A stretch of DNA of 64,000 nucleotides from Candidatus Portnoybacteria bacterium RIFCSPLOWO2_01_FULL_43_11 (GTDB lineage: Bacteria > Patescibacteriota > Minisyncoccia > Portnoybacterales > UBA2143), in the NCBI GenBank assembly GCA_001819605.1, contig MHNE01000008.1, positions 13,054-77,053 of the forward strand. The letters run 5' to 3'. The position numbers and the translations under genes were made by a program. Below are positions 7,023 to 28,074 of the stretch, piece by piece. Below the pieces are notes generated by a model. That model was not told where the DNA came from. It worked only from the letters and a program-made list of their open reading frames with translations, and did no database searches. Each line of letters starts with the position of its first letter. Position 1 is the stretch's first letter.

Positions 7023-8123
7023 ATGTCCAAATATCATATTATAACCTACGGATGCCAAATGAATAAATCAGACAGCGAACGGATTGCGGCTCAACTGGAA
7101 AAACAAGGCCATCAAGCGGCTCAAAAATTAGCCGAGGCGGATTTAATCGTACTCAATGCTTGTTCAGTCCGCCAATCAGCCATTGACCGGCTTTACGCCA
7201 AAATCAATCAACTCAAAACTAAAAACTCAAAACTAAAAACTATCCTGACTGGTTGTCTGCTTAAAAAAGATAGAGAAAAATTAAAAAACCAGGTTAATGA
7301 ACTCTGGCCTTTCTGCGATTTCTCCATTAAGCCGAAATATCAATCATTAAAAACAGCTTATATGCCGATTATGACCGGTTGTAATAATTTTTGCAGTTAT
7401 TGCGCTGTCCCTTATACGCGCGGCCCGGAACGCTCAAGACCGGCTAAAGAAATTATCAAAGAAGTGAAAGATTTAGTTAAAAACGGCTGTAAAGAAATTA
7501 TTTTACTGGGGCAGAATGTGAATAGTTATAATAACGTCATTCTGAGCGAAGCGAAGAATCTCGCGGCAAATAGTAAATCCACGGGATCCTTCGCTAAAGC
7601 TCAAGATGACAAATTGAAAGGGGTTAGTTTTCCCGGCTTACTCCGGATACTCAACAATATCCCGGGTGATTTCCAACTTAAATTTCTTACTTCTCACCCA
7701 AAAGATATGTCCGATGAATTGATTGAAACAATAAGCCAAAGTAAAAAAATAGCTAAAGAAATCCATCTGCCGATTCAGTCCGGCGATAATCAAATTCTTA
7801 AAAAAATGAACCGGGGCTATACGGTCAGCCATTACAAAAATCTCATAAAAAAAATCCGCCGAAAAATTCCGGAGGTTAAAATTTCAACTGACATCATTGT
7901 CGGCTTTCCCACAGAAACAAAAAAACAATTCCAAAATACGGCTCAACTGATAAAATGGGCTAAATTTGACAGCGCTTACATTGCCCGTTACTCTCCCAGG
8001 CCCGGCACTGCCGCGGCAAAACTAAAAGATAATGTGTCTAACGATGAAAAGAAAAGAAGATGGAAAATTTTACAAGACTTTTTAGACAAAAATAAAAATG
8101 GAGTAGCGAAGCGAACGAAGTGA
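7023..8123 (+). CDS. miaB: radical-SAM methylthiotransferase, MiaB/RimO family (no TRAM domain)
   Basis: N-terminal MTTase domain with the YGCQMN cysteine motif and a radical-SAM CxxxCxxC (CSYCAVPYTRG). Sits directly upstream of miaA. Confidence 0.8.
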   Translation: MSKYHIITYGCQMNKSDSERIAAQLEKQGHQAAQKLAEADLIVLNACSVRQSAIDRLYAKINQLKTKNSKLKTILTGCLLKKDREKLKNQVNELWPFCDFSIKPKYQSLKTAYMPIMTGCNNFCSYCAVPYTRGPERSRPAKEIIKEVKDLVKNGCKEIILLGQNVNSYNNVILSEAKNLAANSKSTGSFAKAQDDKLKGVSFPGLLRILNNIPGDFQLKFLTSHPKDMSDELIETISQSKKIAKEIHLPIQSGDNQILKKMNRGYTVSHYKNLIKKIRRKIPEVKISTDIIVGFPTETKKQFQNTAQLIKWAKFDSAYIARYSPRPGTAAAKLKDNVSNDEKKRRWKILQDFLDKNKNGVAKRTK

Positions 8124-8161
8124 GCTTCGCGATTATCGCGGAGCTTCGCTCCGCTACTCCA
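8101..8161. repeat. GC-rich palindromic repeat element (GGAGTAGCGAAGCGAA...GCTTCGCTCCGCTACTCC) overlapping the miaB stop; homologous copy at 45871-45931
   Basis: Both copies share end motifs GGAGTAGCG[A/G]AGCGAAG and GCTTCGCTACTCC. Confidence 0.65.
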
Positions 8162-8224
8162 GATAATAAAAAAGCGGGCCTTTATAGCCCCAAAAAGAAA
8201 AAAGGAACTGTAGAGAGTTTAGCG

Positions 8225-8520
8225 ATTATGGATGTCTATTAGGACATCCGGCTTTTCGCTACAGTTCCTGTTATTGAAATCGCAGAGGAGGCCGCTGGGC
8301 CTAGTGGATGGTGGTAAGCCGGGCGGAGGGGCCCGTACGGCCACTCTGCGATTTCGTTTTTTTTCGGCGGAGACTGCGCTTAATTATTATAGGTTAACCT
8401 GCGCTTTTCGGATAACCTACACTCAGCACAGGCCGCAGTCCCCCTCTCAAAGAACTAGGTGCCTAACTATTGCCATTATATCCATTCAAAAAACTATGTC
8501 AAGACCCTCCTCTTTTATTT
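8225..8520 (+). ncRNA. GC-rich highly structured intergenic segment (candidate ncRNA or structured repeat); identity unresolved
   Basis: Long hairpin AAATCGCAGAGG...GGCCG...GGGCC...GGCCC...CGGCC...CTCTGCGATTT followed by a T-run. Additional hairpins GGATGTCtattaGGACATCC and GGAGCattaactGCTCC. About 60% GC in an AT-rich genome, with no credible ORF. Confidence 0.35.
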
Positions 8521-8598
8521 GAATAAAATTATAAATAAAAAAAGAGGAGCATTAACTGCTCCATAAATAATTGGAATCACAGAGGAAAGAAAAAATTT

Positions 8599-9510
8599 AT
8601 GTCAAGTGGAAAACCATTTTTAATTGTTATCTTAGGACCAACCGCTTCCGGTAAATCAGCTCTGGCCATTAAATTAGCTGGCCGATTTAATGGTGAAATT
8701 ATTTCTGCGGACTCAAGACAAATTTATAAAGAAATGGATATTGGAACCGCTAAATCATTAGGGTCCGACCCTCGCGAGGGTCAGACCCTAAACTTAATTG
8801 ATATAGTCAGGCCTGATCAAGAATTTACTCTGGCTCAATATAAAAAATTAGCTATTAAAACTATCAATGATATTCACAAGCGAGGTAAATTGCCTTTTTT
8901 GGTCGGCGGCACCGGGTTATACATCTGGGCTGTTGTTGACAATCTAAAAATCCCTAAAGTTAAACCCCAGCCGGAATTAAGGGAAAAAATAGAAAAAGAA
9001 ATAAAACAAAAAGGACTAAAAAAAGTATATCAAAAACTCTTAAAATTAGACCCGGGAGCAAAACATTTTATAGAGCCGGATAATCCGCGAAGAATCATCA
9101 GAGCATTAGAGGTTTGTCTTATTACAAAAAAGCCGTTTTCCAAACAAAGAAAAAAAGGCCGAGCTCTTTTTAATGTATTGCAAATCGGCCTTAAGCCGGC
9201 CAAAAATATTTTTGATAAAAAAATAGACCGGCGAGTGGATAAAATGATCCATGCCGGTCTTATAGACGAAGTAAAAAATTTAGCCAAAAAATATAGTTTT
9301 AATCTGCCTTCAATGAGCGGCATTGGCTATCAAGAAATCGGCCGGTATTTAAGAAATGAAATTGACTTAGAAAAAGCAAAAGAACTAATAAGGCTTCATA
9401 CCCGTCAATACGCCAAGCGCCAGATAAGCTGGTTTAAGCGCGACAAAAGAATCCACTGGATAAAGAATTATCAAGAAGCGGAAAAAATAATAAAAGAATT
9501 TTTAGGATAA
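8599..9510 (+). CDS. miaA: tRNA dimethylallyltransferase
   Basis: P-loop GPTASGKS and DSRQIYKEMDIGTAK motifs. Confidence 0.9.
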   Translation: MSSGKPFLIVILGPTASGKSALAIKLAGRFNGEIISADSRQIYKEMDIGTAKSLGSDPREGQTLNLIDIVRPDQEFTLAQYKKLAIKTINDIHKRGKLPFLVGGTGLYIWAVVDNLKIPKVKPQPELREKIEKEIKQKGLKKVYQKLLKLDPGAKHFIEPDNPRRIIRALEVCLITKKPFSKQRKKGRALFNVLQIGLKPAKNIFDKKIDRRVDKMIHAGLIDEVKNLAKKYSFNLPSMSGIGYQEIGRYLRNEIDLEKAKELIRLHTRQYAKRQISWFKRDKRIHWIKNYQEAEKIIKEFLG

Positions 9511-23356: not shown

Positions 23357-23728
23357 TTAATTCCTCCTCATTGCCCACCACTCCGCTAATCCCGCTATGG
23401 CCAATAAAGACAAAACATTCCACCAAGCCAGTATCTTTTGGCTTTGTAAAAACATGGCGCCGACTAAAATAACAGCCAAAAGAATCCCCTGCCGAAAAGA
23501 TACATTGGCTTGTCTTATGGTAATGCCCCGCCTATGGCTGACTCTTCTTATAAAAAAACCGATTAAAAATAAAGCGCCGCTAAATCCGATAAAAAGACTT
23601 AGATAAAACAAAGCCAAAACAGGTAAATTACTATTTGATGGTTCAAGATAAATTAAAATAGCCGCCAGCGAGGCCCAAGCCAGCAAAGTGGCCAAAGCCA
23701 TACCGACCACATAAATCCGCATGCCCAT
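23357..23728 (-). CDS. hypothetical integral membrane protein
   Basis: 123 aa with four hydrophobic helices. Confidence 0.5.
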   Translation of the reverse strand: MGMRIYVVGMALATLLAWASLAAILIYLEPSNSNLPVLALFYLSLFIGFSGALFLIGFFIRRVSHRRGITIRQANVSFRQGILLAVILVGAMFLQSQKILAWWNVLSLLAIAGLAEWWAMRRN

Positions 23729-23819
23729 ATATTTATATTTTACTCTTTTTTATAGATTAAGACAAGAGTCAGCAAAGATAAAAAACTTGCCTAATTAAAT
23801 TTTTTTGTTATAATAAAAA

Positions 23820-23892
23820 CGCGGGGTGGAGCAATTGGAAGCTCGCTGGGCCCATAACCCAGAGGTTGCCGGTTCGAGTCCGGCCCCCGCAA
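23820..23892 (+). tRNA. tRNA-Met(CAU), initiator-like
   Basis: Cloverleaf with anticodon loop CCCATAA, three consecutive G:C pairs in the anticodon stem, a C1:A72 mismatch, and T-loop GGTTCGAGTCC. No CCA encoded. Confidence 0.8.
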
Positions 23893-23914
23893 CATAAATT
23901 TTTCGCTTTACTAC

Positions 23915-23991
23915 GCCGGGGTAGCTCAACTGGTTAGAGCGTCTGACTCATAAGCAGAAGGTTGTGGGTTCGAGCCCCACCCCCGGTACCA
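23915..23991 (+). tRNA. tRNA-Met(CAU), elongator (or Ile2/lysidine type)
   Basis: GCCGGGGTAGCTCAACTGGTTAGAGC..CTCATAA..GGGTTCGAGCCCCAC..ACCA with an encoded CCA. Confidence 0.8.
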
Positions 23992-23992
23992 T

Positions 23993-24068
23993 GGAGCCGT
24001 AGCGTAGCCCGGTTTAACGCATCTGCTTGTCACGCAGAAGATCGTGGGTTCAAATCCCATCGGCTCCG
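23993..24068 (+). tRNA. tRNA-Asp(GUC)
   Basis: GGAGCCGTAGCGTAGCCCGG..anticodon loop TTGTCAC..GGGTTCAAATCCCATCGGCTCCG. Confidence 0.8.
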
Positions 24069-24235
24069 CCTTTGCCCGCCATAGCTGGCTTCGGCGGACG
24101 CAGTCCGCCAGAAGAACGCGACGGCGGGATTCGCCCGCCATAGCTCCGATAACACCGGAGCGAAGACGACCCGATTTCTATGTTTGAGCCATAAAAACCA
24201 GTATTTAAAGTGCTGGTTTTTTGATTTTAAAAATG
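24069..24235 (+). repeat. GC-rich tRNA-like remnant region with a 13-nt direct repeat (GCCCGCCATAGCT x2), hairpins, and a terminal terminator-like hairpin
   Basis: Direct repeats at 24073-24085 and 24131-24143. T-arm-like GGCGGGATTCGCCCGCC. CCAGTA..TGCTGG followed by TTTTTT. Confidence 0.45.
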
Positions 24236-24253
24236 ATATACTAAAGATAGATT

Positions 24254-24481
24254 ATGGCAAAACCATACTACAAAAAACCTAAATTTGAACTCTATTTAGC
24301 CGACTCTCTTGAGCTTTTAAAAAAGTTTAAGGACAATTCAGTGGATATGATTTTTGCTGATCCTCCCTATTTCCTTTCAAGCGGCACTTTCACCTGTCAA
24401 AATGGCAGAATGGTCAGCGTTAAAAAAGGAGACTGGGATATGAGCAATGGGATAAAAAAAGATTTTGATCTCCACTTTTGA
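24254..24481 (+). pseudogene. truncated N-terminal fragment (75 aa) of a beta-class DNA N6-adenine/N4-cytosine methyltransferase (CcrM/HinfI-like)
   Basis: SVDMIFADPPY motif IV followed by GDWD, closely matching the CcrM N-terminus. The ORF terminates without motif I (FxGxG). Confidence 0.7.
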
Positions 24482-25221
24482 ATGATATGAAGCAACACGA
24501 AGCAGTAATAAAAGTAATGAAACAAAATGGTGGATTTGCGACACTTGGGTATCTAAACCAAGAAGTTTTGAAGGTACCCGATGTTGAGTGGAAAACAAAA
24601 ACACCTTTTGCGAGTATTCGCCGTATTGTTCAAGACGAGCGATTTTTCTTTAAAATTAAGCCAGGACTGTGGGCGTTATTGTCGCACAAAAATAAGTTGC
24701 CGCAAGACATACTGCCGACCGATATGATGCCTAAGCAGGAGCAGGAGCTTTTCAATCATAGTTATTATCAAGGTTTGCTCGTTGAAGTCGGGAAATTGAA
24801 GCGGTATGAAACTTTTGTACCAAATCAAGATAAGAACAAGCGATTCTTAGGAAAGACGCTTGGAGAAATAAGCTCGCAAACGGATTTTTACCAATTTGGC
24901 TACGACCACATTGTACGAAAGGCGAAAACTATTGACGTTTGCTGGTTCAATGTCCGAAAAATGCCAAGCGTGCTTTTTGAGGTTGAACACTCAACGGATA
25001 TCCAAAATTCACTTCTAAAATTTGTGGAATTACAGGACTTCAACACCAACTTTTTTATAGTTGCAGACAAGGCGAGAAAAGCAGAATATACAGGAAAACT
25101 GGCACTCAACGCTTTTGACCCAATCAAAGAGCGTGTGCAGTTTATAGATTACGATAAATTATCCAAATGGCATACAAAAACTTTTGAGATTGCCAGTGTG
25201 GAAAATAGTCTAATTTTTTAA
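24478..25221 (+). CDS. HARE-HTH domain protein with a C-terminal putative PD-(D/E)xK-like nuclease domain (restriction-endonuclease-like)
   Basis: N-terminus GGFATLGYLNQEVL...TPFASIRRIVQDERFFFKIKPGLWAL fits the HARE-HTH pattern. C-terminus TIDVCWF...VLFEVEHS is a candidate nuclease core. Confidence 0.5.
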   Translation: MNDMKQHEAVIKVMKQNGGFATLGYLNQEVLKVPDVEWKTKTPFASIRRIVQDERFFFKIKPGLWALLSHKNKLPQDILPTDMMPKQEQELFNHSYYQGLLVEVGKLKRYETFVPNQDKNKRFLGKTLGEISSQTDFYQFGYDHIVRKAKTIDVCWFNVRKMPSVLFEVEHSTDIQNSLLKFVELQDFNTNFFIVADKARKAEYTGKLALNAFDPIKERVQFIDYDKLSKWHTKTFEIASVENSLIF

Positions 25222-25222
25222 T

Positions 25223-25766
25223 ATGGAAATTACCATTAGCCCGTTTTTCGCAAAACTTATTTTACGACTTAATCCGTTTCGTCGCGCTTTTGTGATGTGC
25301 AAAGGATACAGCGATGACTACGAGAATTTTACCGAACTTGTGTGGGAAGATGACAAAGATTTGGATTTTTACGACCGAGAGACCTACCCCAAATTTCAGC
25401 TATGGTTGCTTTAACCATTCATTTTTTGAAAGTCATTGCTGGAACAAATTAAAATCAATGATCTTTTGCGCGGTTATGTGGCACGGAAAAAATTCCAAAA
25501 AGGCAGAACTATTAGAAGTTGAAAGTTTAGATTTTGCCGAAGATGATCAGCTAATAAATGAAATCAAAGTAGACTATGATCTTATTAGAAAAAAATTAAT
25601 TAAGCATGGTTTTGAAAGCTTAACGGGCAAAGACGGAAAATGGATTCAGACCAGAACAAAAGGGACAGGTGGGATAAATCCACGAACGGGCAAACGCCGT
25701 CCGATTACCCGCGCGTTTTACGCAAGAACAAAATTAGTAAAAAAGATTTTTGAAATGGGAAGATAA
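25223..25766 (+). pseudogene. disrupted gene (two overlapping frames); the second frame carries a Vsr/DUF559-like FSYGCFNH...HC motif
   Basis: ORFs 25223-25414 and 25314-25766 overlap in different frames; the NFSYGCFNHSFFESHC motif resembles the Vsr FxxGCFWHxHxC. Confidence 0.35.
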
Positions 25767-25830
25767 ATCGTTCTAAAACAAAAAGGTCGGTATTAAATTT
25801 ATAAATTTGGTATAATTCTTAATTATTGAG

Positions 25831-26064
25831 ATGAAAAAATATAAAGTCAGTTTAGCATTAAAAATTCCAGCTAATTTTGAAATTGAAATTAATACCAGCA
25901 CAAAGAAAAAAGCGTTGGAAAAGGCGTTAGAAAAATATCACAACGGAAAATTTAATGAGAAAGATATAACGGATCCTGATTGGGGTAACATAGAATTAGA
26001 CATAAACGAAAATAGCAATATAGATGATATTGGCAATGGTATTTTTATTGAAGAGATAAAATAA
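25831..26064 (+). CDS. small acidic hypothetical protein
   Basis: 77-aa ORF in the accessory islet; no recognisable motif. Confidence 0.35.
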   Translation: MKKYKVSLALKIPANFEIEINTSTKKKALEKALEKYHNGKFNEKDITDPDWGNIELDINENSNIDDIGNGIFIEEIK

Positions 26065-26132
26065 ATTTTCAAAAACACTGCTCGTATCAAAAAAGCCCTT
26101 TTGGGGCTTTTTATCTTTCAGGCCATTAATCT

Positions 26133-26678
26133 TCAAAGCGCCATTAAATCTTCAAGGGCTCTTTGATAAATTTTAACGGCGTTTTCAGCGTCTTGACGGG
26201 TGAGGCGGAAATCCGGGTCATGAACAATATTATTCCTGATTTTATGGGCCTGCCAAATCGCGTCAATGTTGGCGATTTGAGCTGAAGTGATTTGCTTTAG
26301 TCTCTCGCCCATATTGTCTCCTTTGTAGCCGGATTTTTTTAGAATATTGTCAAGGATTTTATCCGCTTCAATAATGGCTAATTTTAAATTACTTTCCTCC
26401 CCGCTCTCCAATTTCTTCAAAACCGCGCTCCATTCCCTACTCATTCTTCTTTTTGGCCGGCTTGACGCGCCAACGCTTTTAGTTACTATCTGAACCGAAT
26501 TTTTTATGTCAACCCTTAACTTAATAATCAAAAAAACCAAAGCCGCGAAAAGCATAAAAGAAAGCATTAAAGAAAAACTTTTAATAAATAAAAATGTCCT
26601 CCCCCAATCTGAAGAAGTAAAATGGATTGAAAAATAATCGTAAAGATTAAGAAGTAAAGTCCTCATAAGCTTGAGCAA
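26133..26678 (-). CDS. membrane-anchored protein with a C-terminal domain resembling the DUF4145 HEPN family (Rx4HD motif)
   Basis: N-terminal hydrophobic helix. C-terminus AIIEADKILDNIL...IWQAHKIRNNIVHDPD carries the R-x4-H HEPN signature, recognised by consensus-from-memory resemblance to DUF4145. Confidence 0.55.
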   Translation of the reverse strand: MLKLMRTLLLNLYDYFSIHFTSSDWGRTFLFIKSFSLMLSFMLFAALVFLIIKLRVDIKNSVQIVTKSVGASSRPKRRMSREWSAVLKKLESGEESNLKLAIIEADKILDNILKKSGYKGDNMGERLKQITSAQIANIDAIWQAHKIRNNIVHDPDFRLTRQDAENAVKIYQRALEDLMAL

Positions 26679-28074
26679 TGTCTAAAATTTTCTCTTCGTC
26701 AAAATGTTTGCCGATAATCTGAAGACCGATTGGCAACTGACCGACTTTCCCGCAAGGGATAGAAACAGCCGGCGCTCCGGCTAAATTTATCGGCACTGTA
26801 AAAATATCTGATAAATACATTTGCAACGGGTCGTCTATTTTTTCTCCGATTTTAAAAGCCGGTGTTGGCGAAACCGGCGTCATTATAACATCCACTTTTT
26901 TAAAGGCCTCGTCAAAGTCTTTTTTAATTAAAGTCCGCATTTTTTGAGCTTTTAAATAATACGCTTCATAATAGCCGGCTGACAAAGCGTAAGCGCCAAG
27001 CATTATTCTTCGCTGCGGCTCGCTTCCAAAACCATGCTGGCGCGTCTTTAAATAAACTTCTAAAAGATTATCCCCTTTTTCTGAAAGTCCGTATTTTATC
27101 CCGTCGTAGCGGGCTAAATTTGCCGAGACTTCAGCCGGCATAATAATATAGTAAGCGGCCAGAGCGTATTCGGTATGAGGCAAACTCACCTCTATAATTT
27201 CAGCGCCCATTTTTTCAAATTTAGAAATTGCTTTTTTGATTACTTCTTCTACTTCCGGGTCTAAACCCTTAATAAAATATTCTTTGGGCAGACCAATTTT
27301 TAAATCTTGTAACTTGAAACTTGAAACTTGAAACTTGTTTTTGAATTCTACGCTTGTTGAATCCAGCCCATCTTTTCCGCTAATTGCTTCTAAAACAATT
27401 TTTGCGTCTTTGGCGGTTTTGGTTATTGGCCCAATCTGGTCCAAAGACGAAGCCATGGCCATGAGTCCATATCGCGAAACCCGGCCGTAAGTTGGTTTTA
27501 AACCGACCACGCCGCAAAAACTGGCCGGCTGGCGAATTGAGCCGCCGGTGTCAGAACCAAGAGCGTAAATACACTCATTGGCGGCTACTGCCGCGGCAGA
27601 ACCGCCGGAGCTTCCGCCCGGCACCCTTTCCAAATCATGAGGATTTCTGGTAATTCCAAAAGCGGAATTTTCCGTAGAAGATCCCATGGCAAATTCATCC
27701 AAATTTGTTTTCCCGACTATCACGGCTCCGGCTTTTTTAAATTTTTTAATTACCGTAGCGTCATAAGGCGCGATATGATTTTCTAAAATTTTTGAAGCGG
27801 CCGTGCATTTTACGTCTTCAACTAAAATAACATCTTTAACAGCTACCGGGATTCCTTCTAAAACTCCTATTTCTTCTCTTTTTTTAATTTTCTCATCAAC
27901 TTTTTTCGCTTGCTCTAAAGCCAAGTCTTCAGTAACGGTTAAATATGCCCCAATATCTTTGTCTCGTTTTTTAATCTGCTCTAAAACAGCCTCAGTCAAC
28001 TCTCCTGCGGAAAAATCTTTATTTTTGAGACCCTTATGCGCTTGTTGAATAGTTAGTTGGTTTAATGACATCAA
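26647..28074 (-). CDS. gatA: Glu-tRNA(Gln) amidotransferase subunit A
   Basis: Amidase signature GGSSGGSAAAVA; 475 aa. Confidence 0.95.
   Translation of the reverse strand: MMSLNQLTIQQAHKGLKNKDFSAGELTEAVLEQIKKRDKDIGAYLTVTEDLALEQAKKVDEKIKKREEIGVLEGIPVAVKDVILVEDVKCTAASKILENHIAPYDATVIKKFKKAGAVIVGKTNLDEFAMGSSTENSAFGITRNPHDLERVPGGSSGGSAAAVAANECIYALGSDTGGSIRQPASFCGVVGLKPTYGRVSRYGLMAMASSLDQIGPITKTAKDAKIVLEAISGKDGLDSTSVEFKNKFQVSSFKLQDLKIGLPKEYFIKGLDPEVEEVIKKAISKFEKMGAEIIEVSLPHTEYALAAYYIIMPAEVSANLARYDGIKYGLSEKGDNLLEVYLKTRQHGFGSEPQRRIMLGAYALSAGYYEAYYLKAQKMRTLIKKDFDEAFKKVDVIMTPVSPTPAFKIGEKIDDPLQMYLSDIFTVPINLAGAPAVSIPCGKVGQLPIGLQIIGKHFDEEKILDIAQAYEDFTS

Follow-up and report, generated by a model that had tools for sequence, protein, structure and literature searches.

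In Streptococcus pneumoniae, one slot holds either DpnII, a system of methylase and restriction enzyme, or DpnI, a methylase-less nuclease accompanied by a small gene. Endonucleases of the latter kind, in which a winged helix is fused to a nuclease domain, usually stand alone: 87% have no methyltransferase neighbour, the adjacent ones are inactivated by frameshifts, and the enzymes that were tested cut Gm6ATC DNA (PMC11037411). For another winged helix, HARE-HTH, a role in reading modified bases has been proposed in the context of N6-adenine (N6A) restriction-modification (R-M) systems (PMC4738411). Here we describe a nuclease that combines a HARE-HTH domain with the C-terminal domain named after the enzyme R.NmeDI. 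It is encoded in a 64,000-nucleotide stretch (hereafter the window) of contig MHNE01000008.1 from Candidatus Portnoybacteria bacterium RIFCSPLOWO2_01_FULL_43_11, with a G+C content of 39% and a Patescibacteria-like (candidate phyla radiation, CPR) character, going by the organisms named for its homologs. Unless a locus is named, positions are those of the window; loci compared with it carry L numbers.

A four-ORF cassette around a HARE-HTH nuclease

The cargo between positions 24254 and 25766 is one copy of a horizontally spread cassette of four open reading frames (ORFs). These are the 5' stub of a CcrM-like methyltransferase gene, the nuclease gene, a 63-aa ORF and a MutH/Sau3AI-like nuclease gene of which the 3' two thirds remain, in this order:

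24254-24481, plus strand: N-terminal stub, 75 aa, of a CcrM-like beta-class N6-adenine methyltransferase (PADLOC, NCBIfam)
24487-25221, plus strand: intact HARE-HTH and NmeDI_C nuclease, 244 aa (PF27126, HARE-HTH in relatives, PADLOC REase_II)
25223-25414, plus strand: acidic 63-aa ORF, conserved partner downstream of the nuclease in the window clade (homologs, ratio of nonsynonymous to synonymous differences, pN/pS)
25416-25766, plus strand: MutH/Sau3AI-like C-terminal piece (NCBIfam Sau3AI, alignment with L059 and L076)

An earlier reading of this DNA made from the sequence alone (the sequence-only reading) had called the second gene an intact HARE-HTH protein with a nuclease C-domain, and family searches bear this out. 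A precomputed match to PF27126 (NmeDI_C) exists for the 244-aa product at this position on contigs of the same strain, and the same domain is recorded for all of the 120 closest listed homologs (the best 120 of 5397; 77-93% identical), which places the predicted C-terminal domain in the NmeDI_C family. The PADLOC profile REase_II (351 positions, the length of NmeDI) also matches this domain, at 1e-5 to 2e-7. The protein would have 247 aa if the start is the TTG at 24478. For HARE-HTH (PF05066), 31 of 32 diverse relatives match the profile, with a best E of 1.3e-5, but the window protein itself scores E 0.049 and 14.5 bits, under the gathering score of 25.9; the profile search thus supports the assignment at the level of the family and falls below the Pfam threshold for the window sequence. 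In the AlphaFold2 model, residues 1-75 are confident (predicted local distance difference test, pLDDT, ∼80-90) and winged-helix like, the overall pLDDT being 58, and the model matched winged-helix folds only, including the RNA polymerase delta subunit; the public name of one homolog also begins with 'HTH H'. No sequence relative of the nuclease was found among solved structures, DpnI included. D150, E165, E167 and K178 are invariant in 32 nuclease sequences and are candidate catalytic residues.

A total of 5397 database homologs of the nuclease were found at E ≤ 0.001, and 189 relatives are carried by species-representative genomes. We compared the loci of 80 of these 189 with the window, giving 81 species-level loci. 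The relatives examined are 55-90% identical to the window protein and lie in unrelated housekeeping neighbourhoods. At an identity of at least 55% the nuclease spans more than 10 phyla, the hosts of the examined loci belonging to Patescibacteria, Omnitrophota, Elusimicrobiota, Nitrospirota, Desulfobacterota, Planctomycetota, Ignavibacteria and Acidobacteriota, with one genome labelled Pacearchaeota. A relative with 50% identity is carried by a haloarchaeal (Halobacterium) plasmid, other plasmid matches being distant, and no match was found in 50,697 phage records or in IMG/VR; a phage or plasmid origin was rejected on these grounds. Between copies, the raw proportion of nonsynonymous differences (pN) is 0.04-0.20 and the raw pN/pS 0.07-0.25, with synonymous differences (pS) saturated. 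A stop or frameshift interrupts the nuclease in only 2 of the 81 loci.

The first ORF is, as had been proposed, the remnant of a CcrM-like DPPY methyltransferase. It matches NCBIfam CcrM at 8e-7 and PADLOC MTase_II at 7e-21 (positions 2-68 of a 260-position profile), spans positions 44-110 of 289 in the methyltransferase profile used in our census, and keeps motif IV ('DMIFADPPY'). Everything after residue 75 is gone, HPTQKP and FxGxG among it, so the stub is not a beta-class N6/N4 methyltransferase in the sense of PF01555. The gene is dead beside a full nuclease ORF, again in agreement with the sequence-only reading. A full-length relative in L064 matches the CcrM structure 6pbd at 8e-45. The break point, at FEFHL(E) followed by the stop codon, is common to L024, L025, L026, L028, L033, L036 and L045, and in copies of this type the stop lies 1-5 nt before the nuclease ATG or overlaps it; other copies stop at ∼58-72 or 95-108 residues, or after HPTQKP at ∼204-229. 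The 120 closest listed stub homologs (the best 120 of 189) are all 58-124 aa long and none is full length. Raw pN between stub copies is 0.04-0.24, and internal stops occur in only 4 of ∼37 comparisons. The stub and nuclease trees disagree (between the window and L024, for instance, the stub is 63% and the nuclease 90% identical), which shows that recombination took place at the junction of the two genes. Exchange with intact genes by recombination could also help to explain why the stub is conserved.

The sequence downstream of the nuclease had been taken for a frameshifted Vsr gene. PF03852 gave no match in either ORF (Pfam and NCBIfam, E up to 1), and the Vsr assignment was discarded; what lies there is a 63-aa gene followed by a MutH/Sau3AI-like piece. 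The 63-aa ORF is a genuine stand-alone gene: its family comprises 52 cluster representatives, nearly all of them short proteins, homologs lie directly 3' of the nuclease in 17 compared loci, and raw pN is 0.08-0.25 with a raw pN/pS of 0.11-0.35. The MutH-like piece matches NCBIfam Sau3AI at 1.7e-5, below the curated cut-off, and MutH at 0.025. Full-length proteins of this kind in L059 and L076 (172-183 aa) match Pfam MutH at 6e-11, and the one from L059 matches the structures of Sau3AI (4pxg) and MutH (2aoq). The window piece aligns with the C-terminal half of MutH/Sau3AI, including Q-x-R-T-K-G and R-A-F-Y-A-R, and with that half only. A deletion in the window, L025 and L026 has removed the segment with the catalytic E-x-K (E-L-K in L059 and L076), so that the window copy is not countable as an active member of the family. 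Between copies the piece has a raw pN of ∼0.15 and a pN/pS of ∼0.2. Its frame is open from an ATG at 25314 and there overlaps the 63-aa ORF in another frame; the tblastn matches over 25314-25414 are by-products of the conserved 63-aa ORF and do not speak for a longer MutH-like gene. We rejected a single split methyltransferase made up of the stub, the 63-aa ORF and the downstream ORF, the latter two belonging to a small-protein family and a MutH-like protein instead.

Homology between copies of the cassette begins at the start codon of the stub and ends at the last stop codon, and neither conserved ends nor terminal repeats were found, the flanks of different copies failing to align. Raw pS between copies is 0.55-0.9 and saturated. 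Low pN at saturated pS, the scarcity of stops and the unalignable non-coding flanks indicate that all four frames are under purifying selection, apparently also as truncated forms. The earlier description of the islet as decayed is therefore misleading: stub, 63-aa ORF and MutH-like piece all remain open in divergent copies at raw pN/pS values of 0.1-0.35.

Methyltransferase loss and the role of the nuclease

To place the dead methyltransferase in context, we took a census of N6/N4 methyltransferases within 3 kb of the nuclease. Full genes are present in 13 of the 81 loci, fragments only in 26 and neither modelled family in 42, so that 68 loci have no full methyltransferase. Of the 139 neighbour proteins in those 42 loci, only 4 have a match to a further family of DNA methyltransferases. 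The window has no linked intact methyltransferase, as a type II R-M system would, and its nuclease, with no full methyltransferase within 3 kb, is a stand-alone gene in the manner of type IV systems. The idea of a methyltransferase-independent, type IV-like nuclease, raised in the sequence-only reading, fits these counts.

R-M genes beside the nuclease are typically cut on the side that faces it (window clade, L070, L101 and L103). In L070 (1-2702) a CcrM-like methyltransferase gene is split, with profile positions 40-228 upstream and 233-286 downstream of an interruption. Within the latter lie a nuclease module, a second, incomplete nuclease C-terminus and three small ORFs, one of them truncated; this looks like successive insertions into one methyltransferase gene. 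A DpnM/Dam-like gene upstream of the nuclease (best PDB match 2dpm, 1e-42) runs into unrelated sequence in L101, while its DpnM-like counterpart in L103 appears, as judged by eye, to be without its last ∼25 residues; both loci have a second, downstream methyltransferase without its N-terminus. No group I or group II intron was detected in L070, L059, L058, L101, L082 or L049, and a self-splicing intron around the nuclease at the split methyltransferase was discarded as an explanation after the scan of these six loci.

We tentatively favour, at slightly less than even confidence, a stand-alone and probably modification-sensing (type IV-like) restriction nuclease. In this reading the nuclease would be the working part of the cassette, a restriction endonuclease without a linked methyltransferase. 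Its HARE-HTH winged helix would sense whether a short site is methylated, the mark being probably N6-methyladenine and the context possibly of the GATC type, and the putative PD-(D/E)XK domain (D150, E165, E167, K178) would then cut. The flanking methyltransferase genes would be truncated because an active one would turn the nuclease on its own genome. Since its stop codon overlaps the nuclease start region, the stub may mainly supply a promoter and translational coupling, and the 63-aa protein would be a conserved accessory. The GATC-type context is a lead only, suggested by the MutH/Sau3AI-like and DpnM-like neighbours, a DpnII-family enzyme in the corresponding slot of L227 and a GATC frequency of 0.38 (observed/expected) in the window, although CTAG, TCGA and ACGT are equally depleted there.

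Several points weigh against this reading. The PD-(D/E)XK fold was not confirmed structurally, owing to the poor nuclease model, and its assignment rests on profiles and motifs rather than structure. For the whole family, the direction of methylation dependence and the recognition site are conjectural. HARE-HTH as a reader of modification is so far a proposal in the literature, which is split on the mark, a cytosine modification being held likelier in PMC11037411 and N6A systems being named in PMC4738411. No other DNA methyltransferase was found in the window, but the window covers 64 kb of the genome and an unlinked one is possible. Among the 13 loci that retain a full methyltransferase, six from Planctomycetota resemble classical type II systems: a full methyltransferase belonging to another family comes after the nuclease, and in L089 a helix-turn-helix (HTH) controller-like gene was confirmed upstream. 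In L044, L046 and L064 an intact CcrM-like gene immediately precedes the nuclease. The type IV-like model, finally, leaves the purifying selection on the stub and the MutH-like piece unexplained.

These loci give weight to a serious, if in our estimate unlikely, rival, in which the nuclease is a classical type II enzyme that cuts an unmethylated site and is blocked by N6-adenine methylation. The genome would be protected by a methyltransferase that is encoded elsewhere and has matching specificity, such as a Dam- or CcrM-type orphan, the linked one having become redundant and eroded. PMC4738411 describes HARE-HTH nucleases as restriction enzymes of N6A R-M systems, and R.NmeDI, the namesake of the C-terminal domain, works as a classical type II enzyme (PMC2095814). 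HARE domain included, the nuclease keeps at least 55% identity to the window protein whether or not the locus has a methyltransferase, which suggests one shared biochemistry. However, it has to accommodate the 68 loci with no full methyltransferase within 3 kb and the lack of any other one in the window. The gene has also travelled alone between distant phyla, and under this rival that would kill recipients without a matching methylase. Ordinary R-M decay loses the restriction gene first, whereas here the methyltransferase was lost repeatedly, and in L095, L096 and L052 the full methyltransferase already stands next to another restriction-enzyme gene.

The type IV-like reading can be extended to the history of the cassette, in a form that we regard as rather unlikely when taken as a whole. 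The nuclease and its small ORF would constitute a promoterless mobile module that lodges in R-M operons, disabling their methyltransferase and restriction genes and switching the locus from methylating to methylation-hunting (DpnII-to-DpnI style), while selection would keep the stub and the MutH-like piece for functions they have since acquired, for instance in controlling expression, in targeting DNA or as homology arms when cassettes are exchanged.

The small ORFs lend themselves to another interpretation, in which the nuclease is a toxin and the product of the downstream ORF its inhibitor, as in abortive infection. By restraining the nuclease, this protein would replace the methyltransferase, and its loss on infection would free the nuclease. 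An ORF of 50-90 aa lies within a few bases 3' of the nuclease in 60 of 82 loci, and these ORFs fall into at least six unrelated families (L024-L103), mostly acidic with a pI of 4-6. They occur in 43 of the 68 loci without a full methyltransferase versus 1 of the 13 with one (Fisher p = 4e-4, a test that ignores phylogeny), and the window member is under purifying selection. We nevertheless consider this pair improbable. Unrelated small proteins would all need to inhibit an almost invariant nuclease, about one quarter of the loci have no small ORF at all, and the window 63-aa ORF matched no known antitoxin or immunity family in our scans, the other small-ORF families being largely unscanned.

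Truncation of R-M genes towards the nuclease on both sides, copy homology bounded by the first start and last stop codons, and the recombination at the stub/nuclease junction would also suit a selfish homing-type or gene-trap element that disables R-M operons, the flanking fragments being its landing target. This we hold to be distinctly improbable: the junctions in the methyltransferase differ (profile positions ∼95, 112, 127, 141 and 228), so that there is no single homing site, 42 of the 81 loci have no R-M remnant, no intron was seen in the six scanned loci, and the rarity of degenerate nuclease copies (2 of 81) does not fit the life cycle typical of homing-endonuclease genes. Very little speaks for the islet as inert wreckage of an old R-M system with a nuclease ORF open by chance or recently inactivated; a methyltransferase without its S-adenosylmethionine-binding half, a MutH-like piece without its catalytic motif and an islet without an integrase would agree with it, but four open ORFs with pN far under saturated pS beside unalignable non-coding flanks, and a nuclease at least 55% identical across phyla with invariant acidic and lysine residues, do not.

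The insertion slot at tRNA-Asp

The cassette lies within a small insertion islet, a fairly ordinary defence islet, which occupies 24071-26088 from the 3' end of tRNA-Asp to the terminator of a gatC-gatA-HEPN operon. The features of the slot and its flanks are as follows:

23787-23814, plus strand: promoter-like site TTGCCT-16-TATAAT with TG, upstream of the tRNA cluster (consensus scan, pattern match only)
23820-23893, plus strand: tRNA-Met(CAT), initiator-like (ARAGORN, Rfam)
23915-23991, plus strand: tRNA-Met(CAT) (ARAGORN, Rfam)
23993-24070, plus strand: tRNA-Asp(GTC), its 3' end the left anchor of the islet (ARAGORN, Rfam)
24071-24175, plus strand: GC-rich structured element, 105 nt, strain-specific, inside the tRNA transcription unit between tRNA-Asp and the terminator
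24175-24194, plus strand: backbone remnant, start of a 159-aa membrane ORF (tttctATGTTTGAGCCATAA), 13 of 15 bases shared with the start of the 159-aa ORF of L226
24193-24227, plus strand: predicted intrinsic terminator-like hairpin with a T run, closing the tRNA transcription unit
24212-24245, plus strand: backbone stretch upstream of the cargo, 88% identical over 34 nt to L226 2935-2968
25831-26064, plus strand: acidic 77-aa ORF, part of the islet backbone and not of the cassette, 80% nucleotide identity to a frameshifted copy in L226
26089-26113, no strand assigned: terminator hairpin that marks the right edge of the islet and is shared with the convergent gatC-gatA-HEPN operon (read from sequence)
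26133-26678, minus strand: membrane-anchored HEPN-domain protein, 181 aa, a core gene after gatA outside the islet

For synteny we used relatives whose membrane protein is 51-84% identical to that of the window (L009 67%, L226 72%, L227 84%). They keep the gene order dnaE, ligA, gatC, gatA and membrane protein, with convergent tRNA-Asp/Met/Met, a 123-aa protein, pheS, pheT and gyrB. In L009, the closest relative with an empty site, tRNA-Asp directly abuts the terminator hairpin. The slot holds an unrelated 127-aa ORF in L010 and a CopG-like gene in L012. That of L226 (810-3550) contains a 159-aa membrane ORF, an MjaI restriction enzyme (PF09568, 3e-69), an N6_N4 methyltransferase, the frameshifted copy of the 77-aa ORF and the 3' remnant of another restriction gene, and that of L227 (790-1296) a DpnII-family enzyme (PF04556, 2e-8). 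An insertion of variable defence cargo at tRNA-Asp, as the sequence-only reading had suspected, is thus evident from comparison of this flank with related genomes.

Directly beside the terminator of L226, the 3' end of the ancestral tRNA-Asp recurs over 13 nt (catcgtccccgcc), and L227 has an 11-nt copy of the window-type tRNA-Asp 3' end, likewise at the far edge. The resident tRNA-Asp body of L226 differs from the ancestral one, whose 3' end persists as the 13-nt remnant, and it looks as if the islet carried its own tRNA copy. No repeat of the tRNA-Asp 3' end was found at the right edge of the window islet (26065-26089), and no integrase or recombinase ORF was found in 24071-26088 or in the L226 islet. 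The empty or variable slot and the att-like repeats of the relatives support a tRNA-linked islet. The duplicated 13-mer that had been taken for an att boundary is not among these repeats: it has two nearby copies only, a third being absent at the right edge.

Parts of the L226-type backbone survive in the window. The first four codons of the 159-aa ORF are kept at 24180-24194, and the stretch at 24212-24245 corresponds to sequence that in L226 sits upstream of the MjaI restriction gene. The small acidic ORF predicted earlier is present as the 77-aa ORF; its L226 copy adjoins a different R-M cargo, and no homolog was found in any other nuclease locus examined. Observed/expected frequencies of short sites across the window are 0.23 for CTAG, 0.25 for TCGA, 0.37 for ACGT and 0.38 for GATC, with GANTC not depleted (0.86). 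Such palindrome depletion fits long exposure to several restriction systems, including the MjaI (CTAG) and DpnII (GATC) types that relatives carry.

ARAGORN and Rfam (bit scores 58.9-69.1) both recovered the three tRNAs, Met, Met and Asp, named in the sequence-only reading, and in L009 and L010 these tRNAs likewise stand in this order. The element that follows has a G+C content of ∼66%, against 39% for the window, and its predicted fold has a z of -4.5 relative to shuffles. GCCCGCCATAGCT occurs exactly twice in the window (24074-24086 and 24133-24145; chance expectation ∼0.03 copies) and widens to a 16-mer repeat (24071-24086 and 24130-24145) with 15 of 16 identical positions. A GGCGGG can pair with either GCCCGCC copy, the two pairings being mutually exclusive. 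While the GC-rich stretch with its duplicated 13-mer was thus found as described, its proposed tRNA-like nature was not upheld: neither ARAGORN nor Rfam gave a match, even at E 10 on the isolated stretch, and a tRNA remnant or known RNA was rejected. No relative of the element was found in L009, L010, L012, L226 or L227, in the rest of the window or in 100 loci. A metagenome scan for CCGCCATAGC-N40-55-CCGCCATAGC returned mostly glycine/tyrosine-rich coding repeats and tandem arrays, and contained no relative among the ∼70 matches inspected, a result that is uninformative. It could represent either a small RNA or the scar left by past integrations.

The membrane protein on the other strand probably starts at the ATG at 26666 and then has 177 aa, the start of the 181-aa ORF overlapping the end of gatA. 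It has an N-terminal membrane helix, an invariant RNxxxH motif and the four-helix fold with R-x4-6-H of the HEPN superfamily, an assignment based on family-level Pfam matches and fold. HEPN_Cthe2314 matches 15 of 32 relatives. DUF4145 (PF13643) matches 4 of 32, best 1.9e-5, and misses the window protein, so that of the earlier description as a membrane DUF4145/HEPN protein the HEPN part stands and the DUF4145 part has a match in a minority of the relatives. It differs from the HEPN toxins of HEPN-MNT pairs, from YutE/DUF86 and from DUF4145 proteins in its N-terminal membrane helix and in having no MNT partner. All of its 154 homologs that have a source name come from Patescibacteria or unclassified bacteria, and the gene lies directly 3' of gatA in L009, L010, L012, L226, L227 and the same-strain contigs. 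Its fixed place after gatA in many Patescibacteria makes it look like a gene of a housekeeping operon. That the HARE-HTH nuclease and this protein form a defence pair, as the sequence-only reading proposed, has next to no likelihood: the genes are 0.9 kb apart and both domain assignments hold, but they are convergent with a terminator between them, every relative examined has the HEPN gene next after gatA, with or without the cassette, and a HEPN homolog occurs in none of the 80 other nuclease loci.

Further features were noted around the slot. A 123-aa multi-pass membrane protein without a family match is encoded at 23357-23728 (minus strand) between pheS and the tRNA cluster, and relatives have an ORF of similar size at its position. 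In L012 a free-standing LAGLIDADG ORF (8049-8996) lies between tRNA-Asp and tRNA-Met, and the DnaE gene of L009 (1-2944) contains an intein bearing a LAGLIDADG domain. In many Patescibacteria, the operon for Glu-tRNA amidotransferase includes a putative HEPN RNase tethered to the membrane, a puzzling association.

Comparison with known systems

If the nuclease works alone, it is a very widespread restriction nuclease, with 5397 relatives from Patescibacteria to a Pacearchaeota-labelled genome and a haloarchaeal plasmid. Its HARE-HTH domain would in that case be the first from bacteria on which the reading of DNA methylation, a role long proposed, including for the human ASXL proteins, could be put to the test. 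The repeated truncation of methyltransferases offers a concrete setting in which to study conflict between methylating and methylation-dependent defence. As regards annotation, the 'pseudogenes' belong to a conserved cassette, the 'Vsr' gene is MutH-like and the HEPN membrane protein belongs to the gatCA operon. Pfam already covers the nuclease family, and earlier work describes HARE-HTH nucleases as parts of N6A R-M systems; the combination of a mostly orphan clade, recurrent R-M truncation, selection on truncated ORFs and variable small ORFs was not found in the literature searched, which was not exhaustive.

The window nuclease shares its C-terminal domain with R.NmeDI of Neisseria meningitidis, according to PF27126 and PADLOC REase_II. 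R.NmeDI differs in having 351 aa, another N-terminal part and a linked methyltransferase; it recognizes RCCGGY and cuts on both sides of its site (PMC2095814). The window nuclease, by contrast, has a HARE-HTH N-terminus, and its linked methyltransferase is a 75-aa stub of N6-adenine type. The HARE-HTH-endonuclease fusions of N6A R-M systems (Aravind & Iyer 2012, as summarized in PMC4738411) have the same architecture and the same association with N6-adenine methyltransferases. They are described as restriction components of R-M systems, whereas copies of the window clade are mostly solitary and the adjacent methyltransferases truncated.

Like DpnI, FcyTI and HhiV4I, the window nuclease has a winged helix together with a nuclease domain, and its family is mostly stand-alone (84% here versus 87%), with adjacent methyltransferases inactivated in the window clade as they are in that group (PMC11037411). 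HARE-HTH has an extra helix compared with the winged helices of these type IV enzymes, and the same study favours a reader of cytosine marks (PMC11037411). In DpnI the order of the domains is the reverse of that in the window nuclease and no sequence similarity is detectable. The S. pneumoniae slot and ours differ in the nuclease itself, DpnI being unrelated to it, and in the dead R-M fragments that the window cassette keeps, GATC specificity remaining a lead. With these differences, the arrangement can be likened to the DpnI/DpnII slot of S. pneumoniae, a DpnII-family enzyme being found in L227 where the window has its orphan nuclease.

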